This document shows positions 1,275-62,935 of a stretch of 64,000 nucleotides of DNA, piece by piece. A program made the translations under genes and the position numbers. Source of the stretch: an uncultured Thermoplasmata archaeon (GTDB taxonomy: Archaea; Thermoplasmatota; Thermoplasmata; Lutacidiplasmatales; UBA184); NCBI GenBank assembly GCA_963708255.1, contig CAVPSE010000002.1, positions 437,842 to 501,841 of the forward strand, read 5' to 3'. Under the pieces are notes generated by a model. That model was not told where the DNA came from. It searched no databases and worked only from the letters and a program-made list of their open reading frames with translations. The stretch's first letter is position 1. Every line of letters begins with the position of its first letter.

Positions 1275-2948
1275 ATGCCGGCCCGACGGCGCCCATCGGC
1301 CTCGAAGGCTCGCTGGGAGGCCGAGGCCCGGTCGGCCCTCGGGGACGCCGTGGACGGCGGGAGCGTCCCCCTCCTCGTCGGGCCGCCCGACGACGAGAGC
1401 GGCTACATGGACCACCTCGGGTTCCCGGGGGCTCCCCCGTACACCCGCGGCGTCCAGCCCACGATGTACCGGGGCCGGCTCTGGACCTTCCGCCAGTACT
1501 CTGGCTTCGGGAGCGCCCGGGAGACGAACCGGCGTTTCCGCTACCTCCTGGCGGGAGGGCAGACCGGTCTCTCCGTCGCGTTCGACCTTCCGACCCAGAT
1601 CGGCTACGACTCCGACCACGTGCGATCGAAGGGGGAGGTCGGGCGCTGCGGGGTCGCCATCTCCTCGCGGACCGACATGGAGACACTGTTCGGGCAGATC
1701 CCGCTCGATACGGCAACGGTATCGATGACCATCAATGCCACGGCGCCGATCCTCACCTCGCTCCTCGTCGCCGTAAGCGAAACCCAGGGCGTACCGAGGG
1801 CGAAGCTCGGGGGCACGGTCCAGAACGACATCCTGAAGGAGTACATCGCGCGGGGAACGTACATCTACCCCCCGGGGCCGTCGCTGCGGCTCACCACCGA
1901 CCTGATCGAGTTCGCCACCCGCGAGATGCCCCAGTGGAACTACATCTCCGTCTCCGGCTATCACATGCGCGAGGCGGGCGCCACCGCGAGCCAGGAGGTC
2001 GCCTTCACCATCGCGAACGCCATCGCATATGTCCGGGCCGCCCGGGACCGGGGGCTGGCCGTCGACGAGTTCCTGCCGAGGCTCTCGTTCTTCTTCTCCG
2101 CCGACCGGAACTTCCTCGAGGAGATCGCGAAGTTCCGGGCCGCCCGCCGACTGTGGGCCTCGGTGGCGCGGGAGCTGCTCGGGGCGAAGAGCTCCCGCTC
2201 GTGGGCCATGCGGTTCCACACCCAGACCGCGGGCTCGTCGCTCACCGCCCAGCAGCCCGAGCTCAACGTCGTCCGTACCACCCTGGAGGCGCTCAGCGCC
2301 GTCCTCGGCGGCACCCAGTCCCTGCACACCAACGCCCTCGATGAGGCCCTCGGGCTCCCGACCGAGTCATCGGCCCGGCTCGCGCTTCGGACCCAGCAGA
2401 TCCTCGCGGAGGAGTCCGGTGTCCCCTCGACGATCGACCCACTGGGCGGGGCCTACGAGATCGAGTACCTGACCGACCGGATCGAGCGCGAGGCGCGCGA
2501 GTACCTCGACCGCGTCGAGGCGATGGGTGGCTCACTGGTCGCCGTCGAGAAGGGGTTCTACCAGGGCGAGATCGCCCGGGAGGCGTACCGCGTGGCCCAG
2601 GCACGGGAGTCGAAGGAGGAGCTCGTTGTCGGGGTCAACGCGTTCCCGGAGGGGAACCCGGAGTTCGATCTGTTCCCGGCGCGAAAGGGCCGGCAGGCCG
2701 CCGGCCGGTTCCAGCGGGTGGATCCGGCCCTCGAGGACCGTCAGGTCCGCTCGGTCGCCCGGTTCCGTTCCCACCGGGACGCTCGGAAGGCCGACCGGGC
2801 GCTCCGGGAGCTCATCCGGGCCACGGAGGCCGGATCGAACGTGATGCTCCCGGTCCTGGCCGCGGTGCGGGCCGATGCGACCCTCGGTGAGATCGCGGGC
2901 GCGTGGCGCGAGATATTCGGCGAACACCGACCCTCCCGAGCCTTCTGA
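1275..2948 (+). CDS. Methylmalonyl-CoA mutase, large (catalytic, N-terminal domain) subunit
   Basis: ORF 1203..2948. [65 protein letters not shown] is the classic MCM signature. ATG at 1275 chosen to avoid overlap with pheT. Intact frame. Confidence 0.9.
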
Positions 2949-12293: not shown

Positions 12294-12304
12294 TAACCTT
12301 ATCC
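12294..12304 (+). promoter_or_regulatory. TATA-like element upstream of tRNA-Ser
   Basis: TAACCTTATCC lies about 30 nt upstream of the tRNA 5' end (12332). Confidence 0.35.
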
Positions 12305-12331: not shown

Positions 12332-12449
12332 GCCGAGGTGGCTCAGTCCGGTACGGCGCGAGTCTGGAAAGCTCGTGGCGGAATACGCCTCGGGAGTTCA
12401 AAGGCCGACGGCGGATCCGACCGCCCGGCGGGGATTCTCCCCCTCGGCG
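12332..12449 (+). tRNA. tRNA-Ser (anticodon GGA) with a 33-nt intron in the T-loop (12403-12435, position 59/60)
   Basis: Hand fold. Acceptor GCCGAGG/CCTCGGC. Anticodon stem CGAGT/GCTCG with loop CTGGAAA. Long variable arm GGCG-GAATA-CGCC. T-stem GGGAG (12392-96) pairs with CTCCC (12437-41) only if 12403-12435 is removed. Discriminator G. No encoded CCA. Confidence 0.85.
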
Positions 12450-12465
12450 CTCCCTCCCGGAGCCC

Positions 12466-12897
12466 ATGACCCTTCCCGTCCGTAGGACCCCCGCCGCGTT
12501 GCTCCAGGTCGACGCGATCCTGAGCCGGCTGGACGGTCGCCCCGCCCTCGACGAGGTGGCGCGATACCTCCTCGCCGAGTTCGCGGAGCTCGCCGCGGTC
12601 TCCTTCTATCGGGCCGATCCGCCACCGACGTCGTTCGCGGGGGGCACCGTTCCCGAGGGTCGGACGGTCGCGGAGATCCCTCCCTCCGTCGACGAGGCGG
12701 TGCGAGTGGGTCGGCGCGTCGACGACCCGGCTACCGCCGAGGTCGCCGTCCCGGTCCGCGAGGGGGAACGGACGGCCGGGGTGGTGCTCGCCCGCGCGTC
12801 GAAGGGCCCCCTGGACGCGGTCGACGGGCGGTTCCTCGCCGAGATAGCGAAGCGGTCCTCCGGCGCGATCGAGGACCGCCCGAAGCGACTGCTGTAG
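12466..12897 (+). CDS. Small stand-alone GAF-like domain protein
   Basis: Tail of track ORF 9760..12897 starting at ATG 12466. Strong G/C third-position bias. GAF-like pattern (...AAVSFYRAD...VAVPVREGERTAGVVLARAS...DGRFLAEIAKRS). The family call is tentative. Confidence 0.4.
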   Translation: MTLPVRRTPAALLQVDAILSRLDGRPALDEVARYLLAEFAELAAVSFYRADPPPTSFAGGTVPEGRTVAEIPPSVDEAVRVGRRVDDPATAEVAVPVREGERTAGVVLARASKGPLDAVDGRFLAEIAKRSSGAIEDRPKRLL

Positions 12898-13629
12898 CCG
12901 CCAACCCGGCCGACATCGCCCGGCGGGCGGCCCGGCGGGCCCATTCCGCGTCGAAGGGAGGGAATTCGCCGGGGAGGGACCGGCCGCGGACGCCGTGACG
13001 CCGCGACGGATCCCGTCGAGCGCCCGGGTGAGCTCGTCGACGATCGGAATGTCGGCGACCTGCGAGGTCCTCGAGAGGGGGTTGAGGTCGATCGAGATGA
13101 CCCGGAGGCCCATCCGCTTCAGTGCCGACGCCCGGTCGCCGTCCTCCAAGGGGATCACGCAAACGTCGGCGGCGCCGATCCCGCGGACGTCCACCCGACC
13201 ACGGTCCGAGTCGAGGCCCGGGACCCGGCCCGTCGGCCGGAGCCCGAGGACCGACCGGACCCCGGCGCCGGTCAGGCGCCGGGCGACCGAGCGGACCCGC
13301 GCGGGGGTCCGGTGGAACAGGTTCACTTCGATGCGGAGAGACGGGAGCGCGCGGGCCAGGGCCGCCACCTGGGGGGCGGCGAGCGCCGCCACGTTCCCGT
13401 TGACGCTGAGGACGGGACGGTGGGCGGCGAGGAGCCATTGGGCCGCGACCCGCTCGGCTCGTCGGGCGGACGGGATCGTCCGTTCACCGAGGAAGTAGTC
13501 GAACGCCTCCCCCCGGCCGTGGGCGATGAGCCCCTCGGGGACGACGAGGCCGGCCCGGGCTGCCTCGGCGAGGTCGGCCCGGACCTTCAGGCTCCGGTAA
13601 CGGGGATGCGAGGGGGAGATGCGGGTCAT
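12731..13629 (-). CDS. 4-phosphopantoate--beta-alanine ligase (archaeal phosphopantothenate synthetase)
   Basis: ORF 12343..13629, N-terminal 210 aa: HPRYRSLKVR...LIAHGRGEAFDYFLGE...VLSVNGNVAAL...EVNLFHRT...IPLEDGDRASALKRMG...ISIDLNPLSRT...IVDELTRAL. The 3' end is unresolved. No minus-strand stop exists in any frame between ~13020 and 12733. Confidence 0.8.
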
Positions 13630-21530: not shown

Positions 21531-22082
21531 ATGAACATGCGGACAAGGAGCCAGCGACAGTGGAGAAAGAAGGCCAAGCGCGGGGTGTCCCCCATCATCG
21601 CGACGATTCTGCTCGTCGCGATCACGGTCGTATTGGCGGCCGTGCTGTACATCCTGATCTCGGGCCTGACGAAGGGGCCGGGCAACACGCCCCTCGGAAC
21701 GTCCCTCGCCCTCGGCACTCCCGCTGAGGCGCAGAAGGGCGCGGGCGCTACGACGAACAACTGGTACAACTTCACCGTCCAGTCGGCGGGCGGCGGCATC
21801 ATCCTGAACAACATCCAGTTCCAGGTGGTCACCGCGACCGGCTCGATCGTCACGCCGGGCGGCAGTTGGACGATGAGCGCGCTCGGGATCACGGGTACCT
21901 CGGTGGGTACCTACTCGTTCGCGACCGGCCTGTGGACCGCGGGCGGAACGACGATCATGACCAGCTCCCAGACCCTCGTGCTCAACGCCGTCGGAGCGAC
22001 GAGCCTGAGCGCGCAGGGCGATCAGCTGAATGTCATCGGAACGGGTTCCTTCCAGGGCTCGATCTCGGTGAACATCCCGTAA
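21531..22082 (+). CDS. Archaeal type IV pilin (class III signal peptide, Pilin_N/DUF1628-like), paralog 1
   Basis: MNMRTRSQRQWRKKAKRG|VSPIIATILLVAITVVLAAVLYILISGL is a canonical KRG|VSPII prepilin-peptidase site plus a hydrophobic helix. GGAGG lies 10 nt upstream. Confidence 0.8.
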   Translation: MNMRTRSQRQWRKKAKRGVSPIIATILLVAITVVLAAVLYILISGLTKGPGNTPLGTSLALGTPAEAQKGAGATTNNWYNFTVQSAGGGIILNNIQFQVVTATGSIVTPGGSWTMSALGITGTSVGTYSFATGLWTAGGTTIMTSSQTLVLNAVGATSLSAQGDQLNVIGTGSFQGSISVNIP

Positions 22083-22112: not shown

Positions 22113-22664
22113 ATGCAGGTATTGAGTGACAGAAAGAAGGCCTGGCGACGGGCGCGCAAGCGCGGGGTGTCCCCCATCATCGCGACGATTCTGCTCGTCG
22201 CGATCACGGTCGTGCTGGCCGCGGTGTTGTACATCCTGATCTCGGGTCTCACGAAGGGACCCGGCAACACGCCCCTCGGAACCTCCCTCGCGCTGAACAA
22301 GCCGGCGGAGGCTAGCAAGGGAGCGGGCGCCACCACGAACAACTGGTACAACTTTTCCATCCAGTCGGCGGGCGGCGGGATCATCCTGAACAACATCAAC
22401 TTCCAGGTGGTCACGTCCACGGGCGGAATCGTGACGCCGGGCGGAAGTTGGACGATGAGCGTCCTGAACCTGGGCGGCACCGTCATCGGCACGTACAGCT
22501 GGGCGACTGCGTCGTGGACCCTCGGCGGGACCACGCCGATCACCAGCTCTCAGACCATCGTCATGAACGCGGTCGGGGCGACGAGCCTCTCCGCTCAGGG
22601 CGACGCGATGAACGTCATCGGGACGGGCACCTTCCAGGGCTCGATCTCGGTCGCGATCCCGTAG
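22113..22664 (+). CDS. Archaeal type IV pilin, paralog 2
   Basis: Same length (183 aa) and same RKRG|VSPIIATILLVAITVVLAAVLYILISGL N-terminus. About 80% identical to paralog 1 by eye. Confidence 0.8.
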   Translation: MQVLSDRKKAWRRARKRGVSPIIATILLVAITVVLAAVLYILISGLTKGPGNTPLGTSLALNKPAEASKGAGATTNNWYNFSIQSAGGGIILNNINFQVVTSTGGIVTPGGSWTMSVLNLGGTVIGTYSWATASWTLGGTTPITSSQTIVMNAVGATSLSAQGDAMNVIGTGTFQGSISVAIP

Positions 22665-26057: not shown

Positions 26058-26240
26058 CTAGTCCCGGTCCGACGGGGGCAGCAGGTCGGGGATCCCATCC
26101 TGGATCGGGTAGTCGGCCGGGCACGTGGGGCACTTCAAGGTCCCCTCGAGGATCTCATCGCGGTCCTTGCGGACCACCACCAGCGTGAGGTCGCCCTTGC
26201 AGACAGGGCAGCACAGGATCTCCAGTAGGTCCGGTCTCAT
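26058..26240 (-). CDS. trm112: Trm112-family small zinc-ribbon protein
   Basis: [18 protein letters not shown]...[20 protein letters not shown]. 60 aa. ATGA overlap with the aIF2-gamma stop. Confidence 0.65.
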
Positions 26241-27474
26241 CGCCCCGGGCTCTCCACGATCCCGTACCCGATCAGCCGCCACGCGGCGATCTTCCGGGAG
26301 ACCGCCACGCGGCTTCCGGGGAAAACGGTGACGGCCCGGGCGAGGTTCAGTTCGATCTCGTCGCCCCGGGCGCTCGTGACCTTCCCCGGCGCCACGGTAG
26401 TGCCCACGGTGATCGAGAGCATTTCGCCGGTGCGGACCTTCTCGACCTTGAGGTCCCCCTTGGAGCCGAGGACCCGGTCCAGGAGGGTGACCTTCAGCCG
26501 TACCTTCTGGCTCACGGGAGGGAGGGTGCCGGCGGTGCCCACCAAGCGGCCGGTAAGGCCATCCCCCTTCGCCAGCGCCGGGTCGAGGCTGGTGCCCACC
26601 GCGGCGAGGCCGCCCGGGCCGCAGCTCGTCGAGCTCGTGGCCCCCGGAGATGAGCGAGGTGACGGTGCCATGGAGCGACTCGGCCTGGACCTCATTGGGG
26701 CCCGCGATCCCGGGCCGGATCTCGATCGCTTCGCCGATCTTCATGTGCCCCTGGACGAGCGAACCGCCCAGGACGGCCCCCTTGAGGTCCCGGGGCCGGG
26801 TGCCGGGGCGGTTGATGTCGAACGACCGGGCGACATACAGTAGAGGGGGTTTGGTGAGGTCACGGGGCGGGGTGGGGATCGTCGCCTCGATGGTGCCGAT
26901 GAGGGCATCGATGTTCACCCGGTGGTTGGCCGAGATAGGGACGATCGGCGCTTGCGCGATCGGGCTCCCCTTCAGGAACTGGGTGATCTCCTCGAAGTTC
27001 TTGGTCGCCTCCTCGCTGGTGACCAGGTCGATCTTGTTCTGGACGACCACGACCTTGCGGACCCCGATGATGTCGAGGGCGTACAGGTGCTCCCGGGTCT
27101 GCGGCTGGGGGGCCTTCTCGTTGGCCGCGACGAGCAGCAGGGCCCCGTCCATGATGGCGGCGCCGCTGAGCATCGTCGCCATCAGGGTCTCGTGGCCCGG
27201 CGCGTCGACGAAGGAGACGGCCCGGAGGAACTTCGCCTTGCCCCCGCAGCCGGCGCAGGTAGGCTCGATGGAGTAGCAGGTCGGGGGCGGGCAGTCGGGG
27301 CACTTGTAGAAGGCCGCATCGGCGTACCCGAGCTTGATGGAGATGCCCCGGCGGAGCTCCTCGGAGTGCCGGTCGGTCCACTCCCCGGTCAGGGCCTGGG
27401 TAAGGGTGGTCTTCCCGTGGTCGACGTGGCCCACGAGTCCGATGTTGACCTCGGGTTGTTTCGGGAACTTTCAT
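26237..27474 (-). CDS. eif2g: Translation initiation factor aIF2 gamma subunit
   Basis: [10 protein letters not shown], zinc knuckle CPDC...CAGCG, NKIDL. Domains II/III come from ORF 26237..26695. Frame breaks occur two codons after ATG 27474 (AAA run 27469-27471) and at ~26650. Confidence 0.95.
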
Positions 27475-28033: not shown

Positions 28034-28945
28034 GTGGACGTTACCCAGGTCGCACCCCCGGCGGGGGCCGCACTCCTCCTCATCGGCCTGGGCGTGGCCG
28101 CCTATGCCGACTGGCGGTACCGGGAGGTATCCGATGTGCTCTGGATCCTGCTGGCCGTCGGCGGGCTGGCCGTTGGGATAGGGACCCTGGCCGCCTCCGG
28201 CGCCCTATCGCTGGTGCTGTGGGTGGTCGTGGCGTTGTTCGTCCTGGAGCATATGGTCCCATGGGACGACTACGTCGGCTCGATCGATTGGCTGCCCGGG
28301 GCGCTCGAGATGGGCGCCTATGGCGGGGTCGGCGTGCTCCTGCTCGTCGTCGGCCTCAAGGACGGGTTCGGGACCTCGGGCGTTCCGACCACCGTGGCGG
28401 CCGTCTACATCTCGGTCCTGTTCGCGCGGGGCCTCTTCGAAGCCCGCGTCCTGTACGGGGGCGCCGACGCAAAGGCCCTGATGGTGGCGGCTCTCCTCGT
28501 CCCGGTGTACCCCCACCCATGGCTACCGGTCGGGGCGAACCCGACGATGGCTCTCTCGGTGTACCCGTTCGCGTTCACGCTGCTCCTTAACGCCGCGGTC
28601 ATCGCGATCGCGGTCCCTCTCCTCCTCTTCGTCCGCAATGCGATGCGGGGGGAGCTCGACGGGCTCCGATCGTTCACCGGGTACCGGATCGATGTGGCCG
28701 AGCTACCGGAGCGGTTCGTCTGGGTGAGGGACCCAACGTTCCATGCGGACCCGGAAGAGGAGGATGTGGAGACCTCCGAGGACGACCGGCACCTCCGGGA
28801 ACGCCAGCGCGACCGGTTGATGGCCGAGGGGGTCCGACGGATCTGGGTGACCCCGCAGATCCCGTTCGTCGTGCTCATGGCCCTGGGGGCCCTCGTCGGG
28901 ATCCTCGCCGGGAGCCTTGCGTTCGACCTGTTCTCCGTCCTCTGA
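28034..28945 (+). CDS. Prepilin/preflagellin peptidase (A24 family, FlaK/PibD/EppA-like)
   Basis: ORF 28034..28945. First Asp motif [13 protein letters not shown], second GGADAKAL. About 8 TM with a large cytoplasmic acidic loop. Confidence 0.75.
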
Positions 28946-46717: not shown

Positions 46718-48477
46718 GTCTCGCCCCCGAGGAACCGACGGAGCAGCGGGTTCATCTCCATCAGCTGCTCGCGGCCCATCGCCTCGTACAGATTGATGAT
46801 GATCCCCACGGTGAGCAGGACGCCGGTGCCGCTCGCGTTCCCGACCGTACCGATCAGGTCGGCGCCGGCCGCGAGGGCCCCGACGGCCGCCCCCGAGATG
46901 ACGGTGATCACGGGGATGTACCGCGCGAGCACGCGGCGGAGCACCCGGGGCTCACGGCGGAACCCGGGGATCTGCATCCCGGATGATTCGATCTGGCGGG
47001 CCACGGCCTCGGGCCCCATGTTCGTCGTCTGGATCCAGAACTTGGCAAAGATGATCGACCCGATCACCAGGACGGAGAAGTAGATCACGACGTGCGCGAT
47101 ATCCTGCCACCAGCTGTGGCCGACGAGGAAGTTCCCGTAGGTCTGATAGTTCAGGAGCGGCAGCAGCCATGACTCGAGGCCGTTGACCGTCGACAGGTAG
47201 TAGGCACCTCCGGTAAGAGGGGTCGTCTGCGACACTCCGAGCGCCGTCGCCTGGGCCGCCGTCGGGTACGACCCGACCCACCACTGGTGGCCGAGGTACG
47301 GGAAGTGCGAAAGGGTCCCGTTCCCCCAGAGCAGGATCGAGAACATGGAGACGTTCGCGAGGAGCGCGGACATCAGGATGACCGGGATGTTGCTAGCATA
47401 GATCAGCCGCAGGGGGTAACGGCCCCGGGCCCCCCGCGCCTCGGCGTGGGAGAGGGGGAGCTCGATCCGCGTCGATTCGGTCCATGCGACGATGAAGAAG
47501 ATCGTGGCCGTTCCGGCCAGGGCGACCACCGGGTTCGGCGAATGCAACAGCACCTGTTCCCAGCCGCCGCTCGCCATCTGGTTCGCATTGTAGTTGGTGA
47601 AGAACCAGATCGCCTTCGGGATCGTCCCGGCCGGAGGGTTCTGGGCGGAGATCGCGCCCGACGACGCCGGTAGCCAGTTGAGGGTCCCCTGAACGATCTG
47701 TTGCGAGACCCCGGCCGCGATGAACAGCGAGATCCCCGAACCGATCCCCCACTTGGAGACCACCTCGTCCATCAGGAAGACGAGGTAGCTGCCGAACACC
47801 AGCTGGGCGATGATCACGGTGTCCGCGAGGAGCATCCCGTTCCCCGGCGAGGCGACGTTGAGGGAGGAGATCAGCGACCCCGACGGGGTCAGGTACCCGA
47901 ACACCTGGGGGATCGCCTCCACGAAGATCATGGCGACGACGACGACCTTCTGGGAGCCCTGGTACATCCCCTTGTCCTCGTCGTCGGTGAGGTCGAGGTT
48001 GATGATCTTCGCCCCGGTGAACAGCTGCATGATGATCGACCCCGTGACGATGGGGCCGATCCCGAGGTGCATGAGCGTACCCTGGGCGCCCGCCAGGATC
48101 GCCCGGTAGCTCTGGAACAGGTCGATGACCGTCGCCTGGTCGACGCCGTAGAGGTAGATGTTGGTGAGGAGGAAGTAGAGGAGGAGGACGACGATCGTCC
48201 AGAACATCTTGGTCCGGAAGTGGACGTGGCCCTTCGGCTGGGCGACCGCCGGCATCCTCGACGTGATCGGCTTCAGTCCGTAGAGCCGGGACTTCGGGCC
48301 GTCGTAGGAGAGGCCCAGGAACAACAGCGTGCCGATCGCCGCCAGCGCGACGCCGGTGACGATGAGCCCGATGAGCGTCGGACGGGCCCAGTAGTAGTCG
48401 ACCAGGAGGAGCAGACCGAGGACGACGACGACCGGTACCGCCCAGCGGTAGTCCCGGGGGATCTCCTCCTCCGCCAT
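46714..48477 (-). CDS. secY: Preprotein translocase subunit SecY with ~60-aa N-terminal two-TM extension
   Basis: ORF 46714..48477, intact, 587 aa. Canonical SecY begins around ...LKPITSRMPAVAQPKGHVHFRTKMFWT. Confidence 0.95.
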   Translation of the reverse strand: MAEEEIPRDYRWAVPVVVVLGLLLLVDYYWARPTLIGLIVTGVALAAIGTLLFLGLSYDGPKSRLYGLKPITSRMPAVAQPKGHVHFRTKMFWTIVVLLLYFLLTNIYLYGVDQATVIDLFQSYRAILAGAQGTLMHLGIGPIVTGSIIMQLFTGAKIINLDLTDDEDKGMYQGSQKVVVVAMIFVEAIPQVFGYLTPSGSLISSLNVASPGNGMLLADTVIIAQLVFGSYLVFLMDEVVSKWGIGSGISLFIAAGVSQQIVQGTLNWLPASSGAISAQNPPAGTIPKAIWFFTNYNANQMASGGWEQVLLHSPNPVVALAGTATIFFIVAWTESTRIELPLSHAEARGARGRYPLRLIYASNIPVILMSALLANVSMFSILLWGNGTLSHFPYLGHQWWVGSYPTAAQATALGVSQTTPLTGGAYYLSTVNGLESWLLPLLNYQTYGNFLVGHSWWQDIAHVVIYFSVLVIGSIIFAKFWIQTTNMGPEAVARQIESSGMQIPGFRREPRVLRRVLARYIPVITVISGAAVGALAAGADLIGTVGNASGTGVLLTVGIIINLYEAMGREQLMEMNPLLRRFLGGET

Positions 48478-57673: not shown

Positions 57674-58399
57674 TTACATCCCCCCGCCGCGCGCGCGCTT
57701 CTTGCGCCGCTGGGAACGTGAGAACCGTCCGACCTTCGCGCCCGGCCAGGTCCCCGAGGAGACCGTGCTCGGGCGACCGACGTGCTGGTGGGCCCCGCCG
57801 CCGTGCGGGTGGTTGACCGGGTTCATCGCGACGCCGCGGACCTTGAACGCGGGCTTCGAGAGGGTATGGTAGGCGTGGACCTTCTTGCCGGCCTTGATGA
57901 TCGGCCGCTCGAGACGGCCGCCGCCGGCGATCGTCCCGACCTGGGCGCGGCAGGTCGCGAGGAACACCTTGAACCGCCCGCTCGGCAGCTGGAGGGTCAC
58001 CTCGCGACCCGCGTGGGCCACCACGAGGGCGCTGGTCCCGGCGGCGCGGACGAGCCGGCCGCCATCGAACGGATTGACCTCGATGTTGGAGACGAGCGTC
58101 CCGTCCGGGATCTCGCCGAGGGGCAGGATGCTCCCCCGGTCGACCTGCCCGGCGTTGAGGGAGACCTTGTCGCCCGTCGAGAGGCCGGCCGTGGCGAGGA
58201 CGGTGAACGTCGCCCCTTCGGACGGGCTGACCGCGGCGACCGGCGCGGAACGGCCGGGAGCCTGCTCGATGGCGACCACGGTCGCCTCGCCGGTGACCGA
58301 GGCCGTCGGATGGTAGACCGCCCCGTGGTGCCGGTGGCTCGGAGAGCGGTACGGACCCGTGCCGGCCCCGCGCCGGCGGGAGATGATGCGCTTCCCCAT
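57674..58399 (-). CDS. rpl2: 50S ribosomal protein uL2
   Basis: ATG 58399 in ORF 57674..59332. GVAMNPVNHPHGGG. Intact. Confidence 0.95.
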   Translation of the reverse strand: MGKRIISRRRGAGTGPYRSPSHRHHGAVYHPTASVTGEATVVAIEQAPGRSAPVAAVSPSEGATFTVLATAGLSTGDKVSLNAGQVDRGSILPLGEIPDGTLVSNIEVNPFDGGRLVRAAGTSALVVAHAGREVTLQLPSGRFKVFLATCRAQVGTIAGGGRLERPIIKAGKKVHAYHTLSKPAFKVRGVAMNPVNHPHGGGAHQHVGRPSTVSSGTWPGAKVGRFSRSQRRKKRARGGGM

Positions 58400-58663
58400 T
58401 AGAACACTCCTGCCCGGCTCCCAATGTCCTCGGCCGAGAACGGCGGGGCGAACTTGACCGTCGCGATCTTGCCCGGCGAGGACGATCTTGACGTTGACCT
58501 TCGCGACCTTGCAGCTGTAGACCTCCTCGACCGCGCGGCGGATCTCCTCCCGGGTGGCGCGGTGGTCGACGACGAACTCGAGCTTGTTCTGGCGCTCCAT
58601 CTCGTCCATGGACTTCTCGGTCACATAGGCGTGGAGAAGGATCCGGTGGCGGAGGTTCGTCAT
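58399..58663 (-). CDS. rpl23: 50S ribosomal protein uL23
   Basis: ATG 58663. ILLHAYVTEKSMDEMERQNKLEFVVDHRATREEIRRAVEEVY.CKVAKVNV. Frame break ~58480. TAATG junction with rpl2. Confidence 0.85.
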
Positions 58664-59489
58664 GCGACCGCCCCCTCGAGCCGCTGCTTCAGGCTTTCCA
58701 AGGCTGCGAGCGAGAAGATCGTGAGACGCCCGGAGTCGCCGCCGGGGGCGAGGTCCTCCGTGCCGAGGCGGCTCGACCGGGACCACGTCGACGCCGGGGA
58801 GGTTGCGGAACCCGAGCGCCTTCCCGGGGGCGCTGGTGACCATGAGCAGGCTCTTCGGCGCGCGACGGGTGCGGCCCCGCCGCTTCCCTCGACCGGCACG
58901 GACATGGACCCCGTCGCTGGCGCGCTGGATGTCGTCCCAGAGATGGAGCGTCGCGAGGAGAGCACGGGCCTCCGCCGAGGTGCCGATGTTCTCGGCGGTG
59001 GTGTCGAGGACCACGGGGAGGTGCAGCCCCTCGGGAATGTCATGGCCGCGGGCCCGTACAAGGTCGGTGTCCCGGGTCGCCGCGAGGGCGGCGGCGAAGG
59101 CCAGGCGGCGTTCCTTGGTGTTGATCTTCTTCGTCCAGATCGTCTCGATCGTCGGGGGGTGGGTAAGGCGCCCCCCGACGGTGTTCGGGGCCTGGGCCCC
59201 CCGCATCGAGTCCATCAGCCGGGGCGAGCGGGAGACACCCTTGCCCTTCCCGGACCACTCCACCGAGTGCCGGAGGCCGGCCGTAGGCGAGGTTCCGTGG
59301 GGCTGACGGCGGTGCGACTGGGCCGCGACCACCGCGCGCCGGACCAGGTCCGGGCGCAGGGGCGAGGAGAAGGCGAGGGGGAGCGGGACCTGGCGCGCCG
59401 GGCGTCCCCTTGGGGTCGACCACGTGAACGCGGTGGTGCGGCGTCGCGTGTTCCTCGGGCTCCGAGCCCGGCGGCTTCGGCGGGCTCAT
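58660..59489 (-). CDS. rpl4: 50S ribosomal protein uL4
   Basis: ATG 59489. RPDLVRRAVVAAQSHRRQPHG...VGGRLTHPP...KINTKERRLA...RAGRGKRRGR...LAPGGDSGRLTIF. Two frame breaks (~59400, ~58790). Confidence 0.85.
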
Positions 59490-62829: not shown

Positions 62830-62935
62830 GGGCCTGTAGCTTAGCTCGGACCAAGCACCGGCCTTCTAAGCCGGAGAACTCGGGTTCAAAGGCGCCGGCG
62901 TGGGAGCGCCGGAGCGGAAACTCCCGACAGGCCCG
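62830..62935 (+). tRNA. tRNA-Arg (anticodon UCU) with a 31-nt intron in the T-loop (62891-62921, position 59/60)
   Basis: Hand fold. Acceptor GGGCCTG/CAGGCCC. D-stem GCTT/AAGC. Anticodon stem CCGGC/GCCGG with loop CTTCTAA. T-stem TCGGG (62880-84) pairs with CCCGA (62923-27) only after removing 62891-62921. CCTTAAAC lies ~25 nt upstream. Confidence 0.85.

Follow-up and report, generated by a model that had tools for sequence, protein, structure and literature searches.

The 64,000-nucleotide stretch analysed here (the window; positions 437,842 to 501,841 of contig CAVPSE010000002.1, from an uncultured Thermoplasmata archaeon) carries a tRNA-Ser(GGA) gene whose T-loop is interrupted by 33 nt between tRNA positions 59 and 60. 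Judging from the anatomy of the gene and its orthologues, this insert is very probably a bulge-helix-bulge (BHB) intron which is conserved across the order UBA184, Lutacidiplasmatales, and is removed by splicing. The BHB reading is supported by a comparison of 32 orthologous loci, in which the exons are invariant, the introns vary in sequence but keep their length and structure, and a promoter-like element is conserved upstream. A second tRNA gene of the window, tRNA-Arg(TCU), is interrupted at the same site. This is a known kind of archaeal tRNA intron, found in a lineage where it has not yet been described.

The tRNA-Ser(GGA) gene and its insert

The gene consists of the acceptor strand GCCGAGG, UG, the D-arm, the anticodon arm CGAGU-CUGGAAA-GCUCG and the variable arm GGCG-GAAUA-CGCC, followed by GGGAG-UUCAAA, the 33-nt insert and U-CUCCC-CCUCGGC-G (Table 1). 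Apart from false tRNAs with kilobase-long "introns", which ARAGORN produces on this GC-rich DNA, the program called no tRNA in the unspliced segment or in the 64-kb window. Its intron option models introns of the anticodon loop only and, with or without that option, nothing was returned at either interrupted gene. The tRNA model of Rfam gave a partial match to the 5′ two-thirds of the gene (12332-12395) with 22.8 bits, under its gathering score of 29 bits.

When positions 12403-12435 were taken out, the remaining 85 nt were called by ARAGORN as a class II tRNA-Ser(GGA) with a 5-bp T-stem (GGGAG, 12392-12396, paired with CTCCC, 12437-12441) and the T-loop TTCAAAT. The spliced form has the long variable arm, the anticodon GGA, the discriminator base G73 and the 7-bp acceptor stem of this tRNA class. 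The insert is real: once exactly these positions are gone, a sequence that had escaped detection reads as a textbook tRNA-Ser(GGA). The original prediction, made from the letters of the stretch without database searches, had proposed a T-loop intron at 59/60 in this gene; its coordinates for T-stem, insert, helices, bulges and loop all match the sequence, and the proposal is borne out both by the ARAGORN call, which appears only after excision, and by the agreement of the 32 orthologous loci. Two other origins of the insert were considered and rejected, namely a group I or group II intron (the insert is far too short and has no ribozyme core) and a C/D-box guide RNA inside the intron, for which 33 nt is too short.

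Table 1. Coordinates, within the 64-kb window, of the two interrupted tRNA genes, their parts and their upstream elements.
Feature	Position	Strand	Remarks
BRE/TATA promoter-like element TAACCTTATC	12294-12303	+	38 to 29 nt before the 5′ end of tRNA-Ser; AT-rich island in 70% GC DNA
Interrupted tRNA-Ser(GGA) gene, whole	12332-12449	+	118 nt; no encoded CCA; discriminator G at 12449
tRNA-Ser exon 1	12332-12402	+	Acceptor 5′ strand, D-arm, anticodon arm, long variable arm, T-stem 5′ strand, T-loop 54-59; from the ARAGORN cloverleaf of the spliced sequence
tRNA-Ser anticodon GGA	12366-12368	+	
Central BHB helix, 5′ strand (U54 U55 C56 A57)	12397-12400	+	Partners 12433-12430
5′ bulge (A58 A59 / G)	12401-12403	+	Predicted 5′ cut 12402/12403; 3-4-3 BHB geometry
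tRNA-Ser intron	12403-12435	+	33 nt; cloverleaf restored on removal
Intron hairpin (inner helix h′)	12404-12429	+	GCCG 12404-07 with CGGC 12426-29; GGCGG 12410-14 with CCGCC 12421-25; minimum-free-energy folding
Hairpin loop AUCCGA	12415-12420	+	
Central BHB helix, 3′ strand (GGGG)	12430-12433	+	
3′ bulge (A U / U60)	12434-12436	+	Predicted 3′ cut 12435/12436
tRNA-Ser exon 2	12436-12449	+	U60, T-stem 3′ strand 12437-12441, acceptor 3′ strand 12442-12448, discriminator G; invariant in 32/32 loci
TATA-like CTTAAA	62800-62805	+	30 to 25 nt before tRNA-Arg; AT-rich island; putative promoter
Interrupted tRNA-Arg(TCU) gene, whole	62830-62935	+	Exon 1 62830-62890; intron 62891-62921 (31 nt, at 59/60); exon 2 62922-62935

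Conservation among orthologous loci

About 2 Mb of DNA was scanned with a purpose-written scanner for 59/60 insertions, and ARAGORN was then run on the spliced candidates. The interrupted tRNA-Ser(GGA) was recovered in 31 other Thermoplasmata assemblies (order UBA184, Lutacidiplasmatales), while false output was limited to two unrelated spurious calls (L123, L181) and to duplicate or mis-extended calls at the tRNA-Ser loci. Such a recovery lies far above chance expectation. As in the window, the gene is convergent with that for the archaeal phosphopantothenate synthetase (PPS) in all 31 relatives, where it lies about 0.5-0.7 kb beyond the end of the PPS match. The insert occupies the identical site in every one of them, with a length of 33 nt in 30 and of 32 nt in the remaining one (L015). 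Two further close relatives (L021 and L028) gave no tRNA-Ser match, their contigs ending too soon. ARAGORN called no tRNA in 80 loci from the genome collection; masking of tRNAs was considered as a cause and rejected, as there are no long runs of N and normal tRNAs were found in metagenome loci.

In the alignment of the 32 orthologous loci (the window and its 31 relatives), the exons have a mean identity of 99.0%, their few differences lying in the D-loop, in one anticodon-stem change from G.U to C-G and in the loop of the variable arm. The introns average 68.4% pairwise identity, with 31 distinct sequences in the 32 loci, and the neighbouring PPS proteins are only 65-77% identical across the relatives. 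It follows from this contrast that the exons are under strong selection and that the insert is constrained in length and fold, not in sequence. Upstream of the gene, the motif (c)TAAnCTTATC is found at the same distance in nearly all 32 loci. From its sequence and position this element is a putative archaeal promoter, comprising a TFB-recognition element (BRE) and a TATA box.

Structure and covariation of the proposed BHB motif

The cloverleaf and the proposed BHB were tested on the same alignment with 500 shuffles and by sliding the partner columns by 1-3. Standard pairs account for 94% of the paired cells, a figure that drops to 43-53% when partners are slid by 1-3 columns, and the observed covariation and pairing was reached in 0 of the 500 shuffles. 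Seven pairs have changed on both sides, all of them within the intron hairpin. The outer helix (h) is the invariant 5-bp T-stem, and the inner helix (h′) has at least 4 bp and a second helix, with the seven compensatory pairs.

The central helix of the window sets UUCA against GGGG, giving two G.U pairs, one C-G and one A.G. Among the 31 distinct orthologous sequences, U54 meets intron position -3 as U.G in 17 and as U-A in 14, U55 meets position -4 as U-A in 21 and as U.G in 10, and C56 forms C-G with position -5 in all 31; the intron columns opposite U54 and U55 contain A or G only. A57 is never in a standard pair with position -6, its partner being G in 30 of the 32 loci, C in one and A in one. 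The bulge bases A58 and A59 (A70 and A71 of the alignment), the A at -2 and U60 are invariant. The first intron base (C 26, G 3, T 3) and the last (T 23, A 4, C 4, G 1) vary over the 32 loci while every exon base of the T-arm is fixed, for which reason both are assigned to the intron.

The two 3-nt bulges and their 4-position spacing fit the 3-4-3 BHB exactly, with a central helix of three standard pairs and A57.G. The motif does not fall among the relaxed types (HBh′, hBH/BHL), since neither tRNA-Ser nor tRNA-Arg lacks a 3-nt bulge or a flanking helix. A relaxed BHB had been proposed originally; its layout is retained here, but the motif is better described as near strict, with the A57.G of the central helix as the sole departure. 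Read from the sequence, 59/60 is the only register in which T-stem, inner helix, both 3-nt bulges and the 4-position helix take their canonical places; counted along the arm (last stem pair + 4 + 2), it corresponds to 37/38 on the anticodon arm.

The following course of events is suggested for the gene. It would be transcribed from the conserved BRE/TATA-like promoter into a precursor in which the 5-bp T-stem acts as the outer helix and U54-U55-C56-A57 would find their partners in the purine-rich intron 3′ end (GGRR), with three standard pairs plus A57.G. One bulge would consist of A58, A59 and the first intron base and the other of the last two intron bases and U60, with the rest of the intron forming a GC-rich hairpin as inner helix. 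EndA, the splicing endonuclease, is predicted to cut each bulge behind its second base, at 12402/12403 and 12435/12436, and the exons would be joined by an RtcB-type ligase. This should yield a class II tRNA-Ser of 85 nt whose T-loop, UUCAAAU, is canonical; CCA would be added later.

The interrupted tRNA-Arg(TCU) gene

The original prediction did not include the tRNA-Arg(TCU) gene, which is the sole other tRNA of the 64-kb window; a permissive Rfam scan of the window found no further tRNA-like sequence. The only Rfam tRNA match in the window at the gathering score covers 62830-62888, with the T-arm "missing". After splicing, the gene was called as tRNA-Arg(tct) by ARAGORN, and the 59/60 insert was confirmed by the scanner. 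Its junction reads UCGGG-UUCAAA, 31 nt, U-CCCGA-CAGGCCC-G. In the BHB, TTCA at 62885-88 lies opposite GGAA at 62916-19, the bulges are AA/G and AC/U and the hairpin extends over 62892-62915. Both tRNAs of the window are thus interrupted, a hint at a possibly higher frequency of the intron in this genome.

The same tRNA-Arg gene is found on a related metagenome contig (L132), where its 31-nt intron differs from that of the window but is built in the same way. The introns of the window and L132 are unrelated in sequence, have GGAA or GGGG opposite UUCA and share the A57.G. Another metagenome contig of 3 kb and GC 0.70 (L098) encodes a different tRNA-Arg(TCU) at 1867-1983 (+), whose intron at 59/60 is 42 nt long and forms a perfect central helix of 4 bp; a tRNA-Trp(CCA) follows after about 180 nt, at 2165-2340 (+), with an 83-nt canonical anticodon-loop intron. 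A tRNA-Arg(TCU) nearly identical to that of L098 is found without intron on contig L109, so the presence of the intron varies among close relatives. The search pattern used on metagenomes, which combined the anticodon arm and T-loop of tRNA-Arg, was too general, and the matches listed were mostly intron-less tRNA-Arg(TCU) genes from many archaea and bacteria. Among these listed matches the informative ones were L132, L098 and L182, the latter cut by the contig end, while L119 proved to be a scaffold gap. The relatives' loci were also searched for more tRNAs and for other RNA families, and none were found there.

The splicing endonuclease EndA

A search with the EndA of M. jannaschii (sequence verified against PDB 1A79) found no EndA gene in the window or in the 32 intron-bearing loci. 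Four loci of Methanomassiliicoccales do have EndA in the vicinity of PPS, no more than a few kb away (L030 1180-2319, L036 6066-7238, L039 7439-8560 and L040 1-288), and these proteins served as a stepping stone to the EndA of soil Thermoplasmata. This led to a large family of 354-aa EndA proteins in soil assemblies labelled "Thermoplasmata archaeon" with a GC of 0.695. Their neighbourhood is conserved (L201-L236), with a CarS-like gene, a phosphoribosyltransferase and EndA beside genes for aromatic amino-acid biosynthesis.

The proteins (P0273 and its relatives) consist of two tandem EndA units with the Pfam architecture N-C-N-C, that is the alpha′2 type. Residues 187-354 of P0273 align with residues 4-171 of the M. 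jannaschii EndA with just one 1-residue and one 2-residue gap, and the contexts of the catalytic site are kept in this C-terminal unit. As the alignment is nearly gapless, the 354-aa EndA has no insert of the L1/L2/L3 type, loops that have been linked to broad EndA specificity (PMC5829648). The EndA-bearing assemblies (JBKQKZ, DATJUJ, DASPQG, DATJNY, JBARHY, DAHUZN, CDBEQG, JBJKRJ, JBARNH and others) include none of the 31 intron-bearing ones, and no gene is common to the EndA loci and the window. By its GC, habitat, taxon labels and sister relation to Methanomassiliicoccales, the 354-aa alpha′2 EndA probably belongs to the order. The endonuclease type, the identification of which had been put forward as a check on the intron, is thus alpha′2 in GC-matched soil Thermoplasmata, in assemblies not linked to any that bear the intron.

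Alternative explanations

A number of points weigh against splicing of a 3-4-3 BHB intron at 59/60. The excision and the exact cut sites are themselves deduced from the sequence, and the EndA type was read from related assemblies, which include neither this genome nor one known to bear the intron. Energy-based folding, another check that had been proposed at the outset, predicts the T-stem and the intron hairpin but gives a symmetric internal loop in place of the central helix. Forcing the 3-4-3 BHB costs about 1-5 kcal/mol; alone, the central helix is therefore marginal and would depend on the enzyme for its stability. In none of the tRNA-Ser orthologues does this helix reach a full 4 bp, and alpha4 and alpha′2 enzymes are reported to require the strict 3-4-3 hBHBh′ motif (PMC3239211), so that its A.G may count against the proposal. 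Finally, the first intron base is C in 26 of 32 loci and could pair with the conserved G, leaving a 3-bp central helix, a form which would not give a 7-nt T-loop if cut by the standard rule.

This last point leads to the rival that we consider improbable but take most seriously, in which the BHB intron is spliced in another register (58/59 or 57/58) or is a relaxed variant with a 3-bp helix, needing a broader endonuclease than plain alpha′2. The repeated A's (A57-A59 and the invariant bulge A) mean that cleavage at 59/60, 58/59 or 57/58 would give near-identical mature sequences; however, only 59/60 sets the bulges four positions apart with helices on both sides, and the last intron base is variable where the exon positions of the T-arm are invariant, which marks that base as intronic. 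For the relaxed variant speak the possible C-G pair and a fourth central position that is never a standard pair. Against it, the alternative C-G pair cannot form in three of the 32 tRNA-Ser introns (the window, L018 and L068) or in either tRNA-Arg intron, and the only EndA found in GC-matched Thermoplasmata is plain alpha′2.

It is also conceivable, though at much longer odds, that the 33 nt are retained and that the mature tRNA has an extra hairpin expanding its T-loop. The insert is indeed a stable, conserved hairpin whose excision we infer from sequence, but if kept between 59 and 60 it would disrupt the T-loop, which could then no longer contact the D-loop. Its surroundings match the BHB geometry closely, down to the invariant bulge bases and the purine-only strand opposite U54 and U55, its sequence evolves freely, unlike the exon positions, and the same design is present in tRNA-Arg.

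Hardly credible at all is a decayed pseudogene, in which a tRNA-Ser copy was broken by a random 33-nt insertion while a working copy exists elsewhere. The failure of standard tools to call the gene would fit such a copy, but the interrupted form itself is kept in 32 assemblies spanning an order, with stems that are intact after splicing, exons that are 99% identical, a promoter-like motif conserved across the order and compensatory changes that maintain the structure of the insert. A BLAST search with the spliced tRNA found no intron-less tRNA-Ser(GGA) in the locus of any relative (loci, not whole genomes). Near-complete genomes of the order also leave little room for redundant copies, the best of them having 45-47 tRNAs for all 20 amino acids according to tRNAscan-SE 2.0.5 in a report that does not mention introns (PMC9287336); this version of the program probably detects the interrupted genes. 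An assembly artefact as the origin of the insert was rejected on the agreement of 31 independent assemblies. Conservation among orthologues, the contrast between exons and introns and the conserved upstream motif exclude both pseudogene and assembly error, and excision of a BHB intron at 59/60 is retained as the best explanation.

Host lineage and genomic context

The window has a G+C content of 70% and its housekeeping genes are archaeal, including a ribosomal protein cluster, SecY, Cbf5, CysRS, PCNA, TFB, PurP, archaeal pilins and methylmalonyl-CoA mutase. In a collection of species-representative genomes, the closest relatives of its PPS are all uncultured soil Thermoplasmata, among them UBA184, Candidatus Lutacidiplasma silvani AcS3-62 and other AcS/SubAcS assemblies. 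The AcS/SubAcS assemblies have been placed in the GTDB order UBA184, Lutacidiplasmatales, with a GC of ~69% (PMC9287336). The Thermoplasmatota-like host that had been suspected from gene content agrees with these relatives, named Lutacidiplasmatales genomes being among them.

Beside the tRNA-Ser gene, the open reading frame (ORF) of PPS at 12343-13629 (-) runs ~180 codons beyond the PPS domain and into the tRNA. On the strand of the tRNA, a 143-codon ORF at 12466-12897 (+) starts 17 nt past the gene (MTLPVRRTPAALLQVDAILSRLDG...), and start contexts resembling that of this ORF follow the tRNA in relatives.

Elsewhere in the window, the L4, L23 and L2 domains are found in one 604-codon frame at 57674-59485 (-), with the C-terminal ends of L4 and L23 read out-of-frame, and a 458-aa ORF at 26058-27434 (-) joins a GTP_EFTU domain to a Trm112-like domain. 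Such apparently fused or frame-shifted ORFs suggest errors in the sequence (small indels, perhaps introduced by long-read assembly) and not a biological cause. The intron finding is unaffected by them, because the lengths of tRNA and intron agree with those of 31 other assemblies. Two adjoining genes for 183-aa archaeal type IV pilin-like proteins (Pilin_N) are located at 21531-22082 and 22113-22664 (+), and a prepilin peptidase-like gene at 28034-28945. The pilin-like region has a GC at first codon positions clearly below that of neighbouring genes. Inside the coding region of SecY, at 48312-48388 (+), the C/D-box RNA family sR-tMet was matched weakly, with 25.7 bits (threshold 50) and E = 2.2, most likely by chance.

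Comparison with known archaeal tRNA introns

The site 59/60 is among the non-canonical positions listed for archaeal tRNA introns (PMC4090602). Introns at this site occur in ARMAN-2, one of which is cleaved in vitro by the epsilon2 enzyme of that organism (PMC3239211). Euryarchaeota with alpha4 or alpha′2 enzymes have introns at 37/38 only according to reviews (PMC4090602), and the evolution of non-canonical introns is held to have gone hand in hand with that of endonucleases of wider specificity (PMC5829648, PMC3239211). Supplementary Table S7 of tRNAscan-SE 2.0 nevertheless gives, for 6970 tRNA genes of Euryarchaeota, a total of 25 non-canonical introns, of which six fall to Methanomassiliicoccales (138 genes, three genomes), one to Thermoplasmatales (231 genes, five genomes), 11 to Methanosarcinales and four to Methanocellales (PMC8450103). 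The original view that T-loop introns would be unexpected in Thermoplasmatota thus holds in that non-canonical introns are rare there, but these counts show that they are not unprecedented. No description of T-loop introns in Lutacidiplasmatales or Thermoplasmatota was found in the literature.

The interest of the present case rests on its lineage, on the apparently unmodified alpha′2 enzyme and on the conserved A.G of the central helix. In this widespread order of soil Thermoplasmatota, a T-loop intron has persisted in an essential tRNA while the order diversified, and a second tRNA has one too. In principle, no exotic endonuclease is needed for an intron at 59/60; that an unmodified alpha′2 is the only endonuclease found in matching genomes supports the idea that spliceability is set by the shape of the motif, not by its position or by subunit type. 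With its A.G in the central helix, the precursor would be a natural substrate for testing how strict the "strict" enzymes are. It is worth mentioning that ARAGORN and Rfam at their defaults miss both genes, the tRNA-Arg appearing in Rfam just as a match without T-arm, and the tRNA counts by which assembly quality is judged can therefore be too low for this lineage. A bolder proposal, which we regard as doubtful at present, is that 59/60 introns are common across the tRNA set of Lutacidiplasmatales, having expanded at a single site with a plain alpha′2 enzyme that lacks the specificity loop. If true, this would run against the accepted link of non-canonical introns to (alpha-beta)2, epsilon2 or loop-bearing enzymes, and the conserved A57.G could be a lineage-specific recognition feature.

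The introns described here share their T-loop site with the 59/60 introns of Crenarchaeota (Thermoproteales), Nanoarchaeota, Thaumarchaeota and ARMAN-2 (pre-tRNA-Cys(GCA) and pre-tRNA-Pro(GGG)), as well as the use of the T-stem as outer helix and, as proposed, of T-loop positions 54-57 with the 3′ end of the intron as central helix. The 59/60 intron of ARMAN-2 tRNA-Pro is of the strict hBHBh′ type (PMC3239211, PMC4090602). Unlike those hosts, the present one belongs to an order of Thermoplasmatota and is predicted to have a plain alpha′2 enzyme without L1/L2/L3 instead of an (alpha-beta)2 or epsilon2 enzyme. The introns are 31-33 nt long compared with 13 nt in ARMAN-2 tRNA-Cys, and also differ from known 59/60 introns in the conserved A57.G of the central helix and in being fixed across a whole order. 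With the cases of Table S7 from Thermoplasmatota and other alpha′2 Euryarchaeota they have in common the phylum and the expected enzyme, and the counts of that table show that non-canonical positions are tolerated at low frequency; those cases are given as counts without positions or isotypes, from a data set that does not include Lutacidiplasmatales, and the Methanomassiliicoccales loci examined here had no tRNA genes at all. With the canonical BHB intron at 37/38 they would share the 3-4-3 geometry, and they have the same spacing from the last stem pair, and the same enzyme and ligase would be expected to act on both. The difference to the canonical intron is that the motif lies on the T-arm, where the fixed T-loop sequence UUCA constrains the 3′ end of the intron to GGRR.

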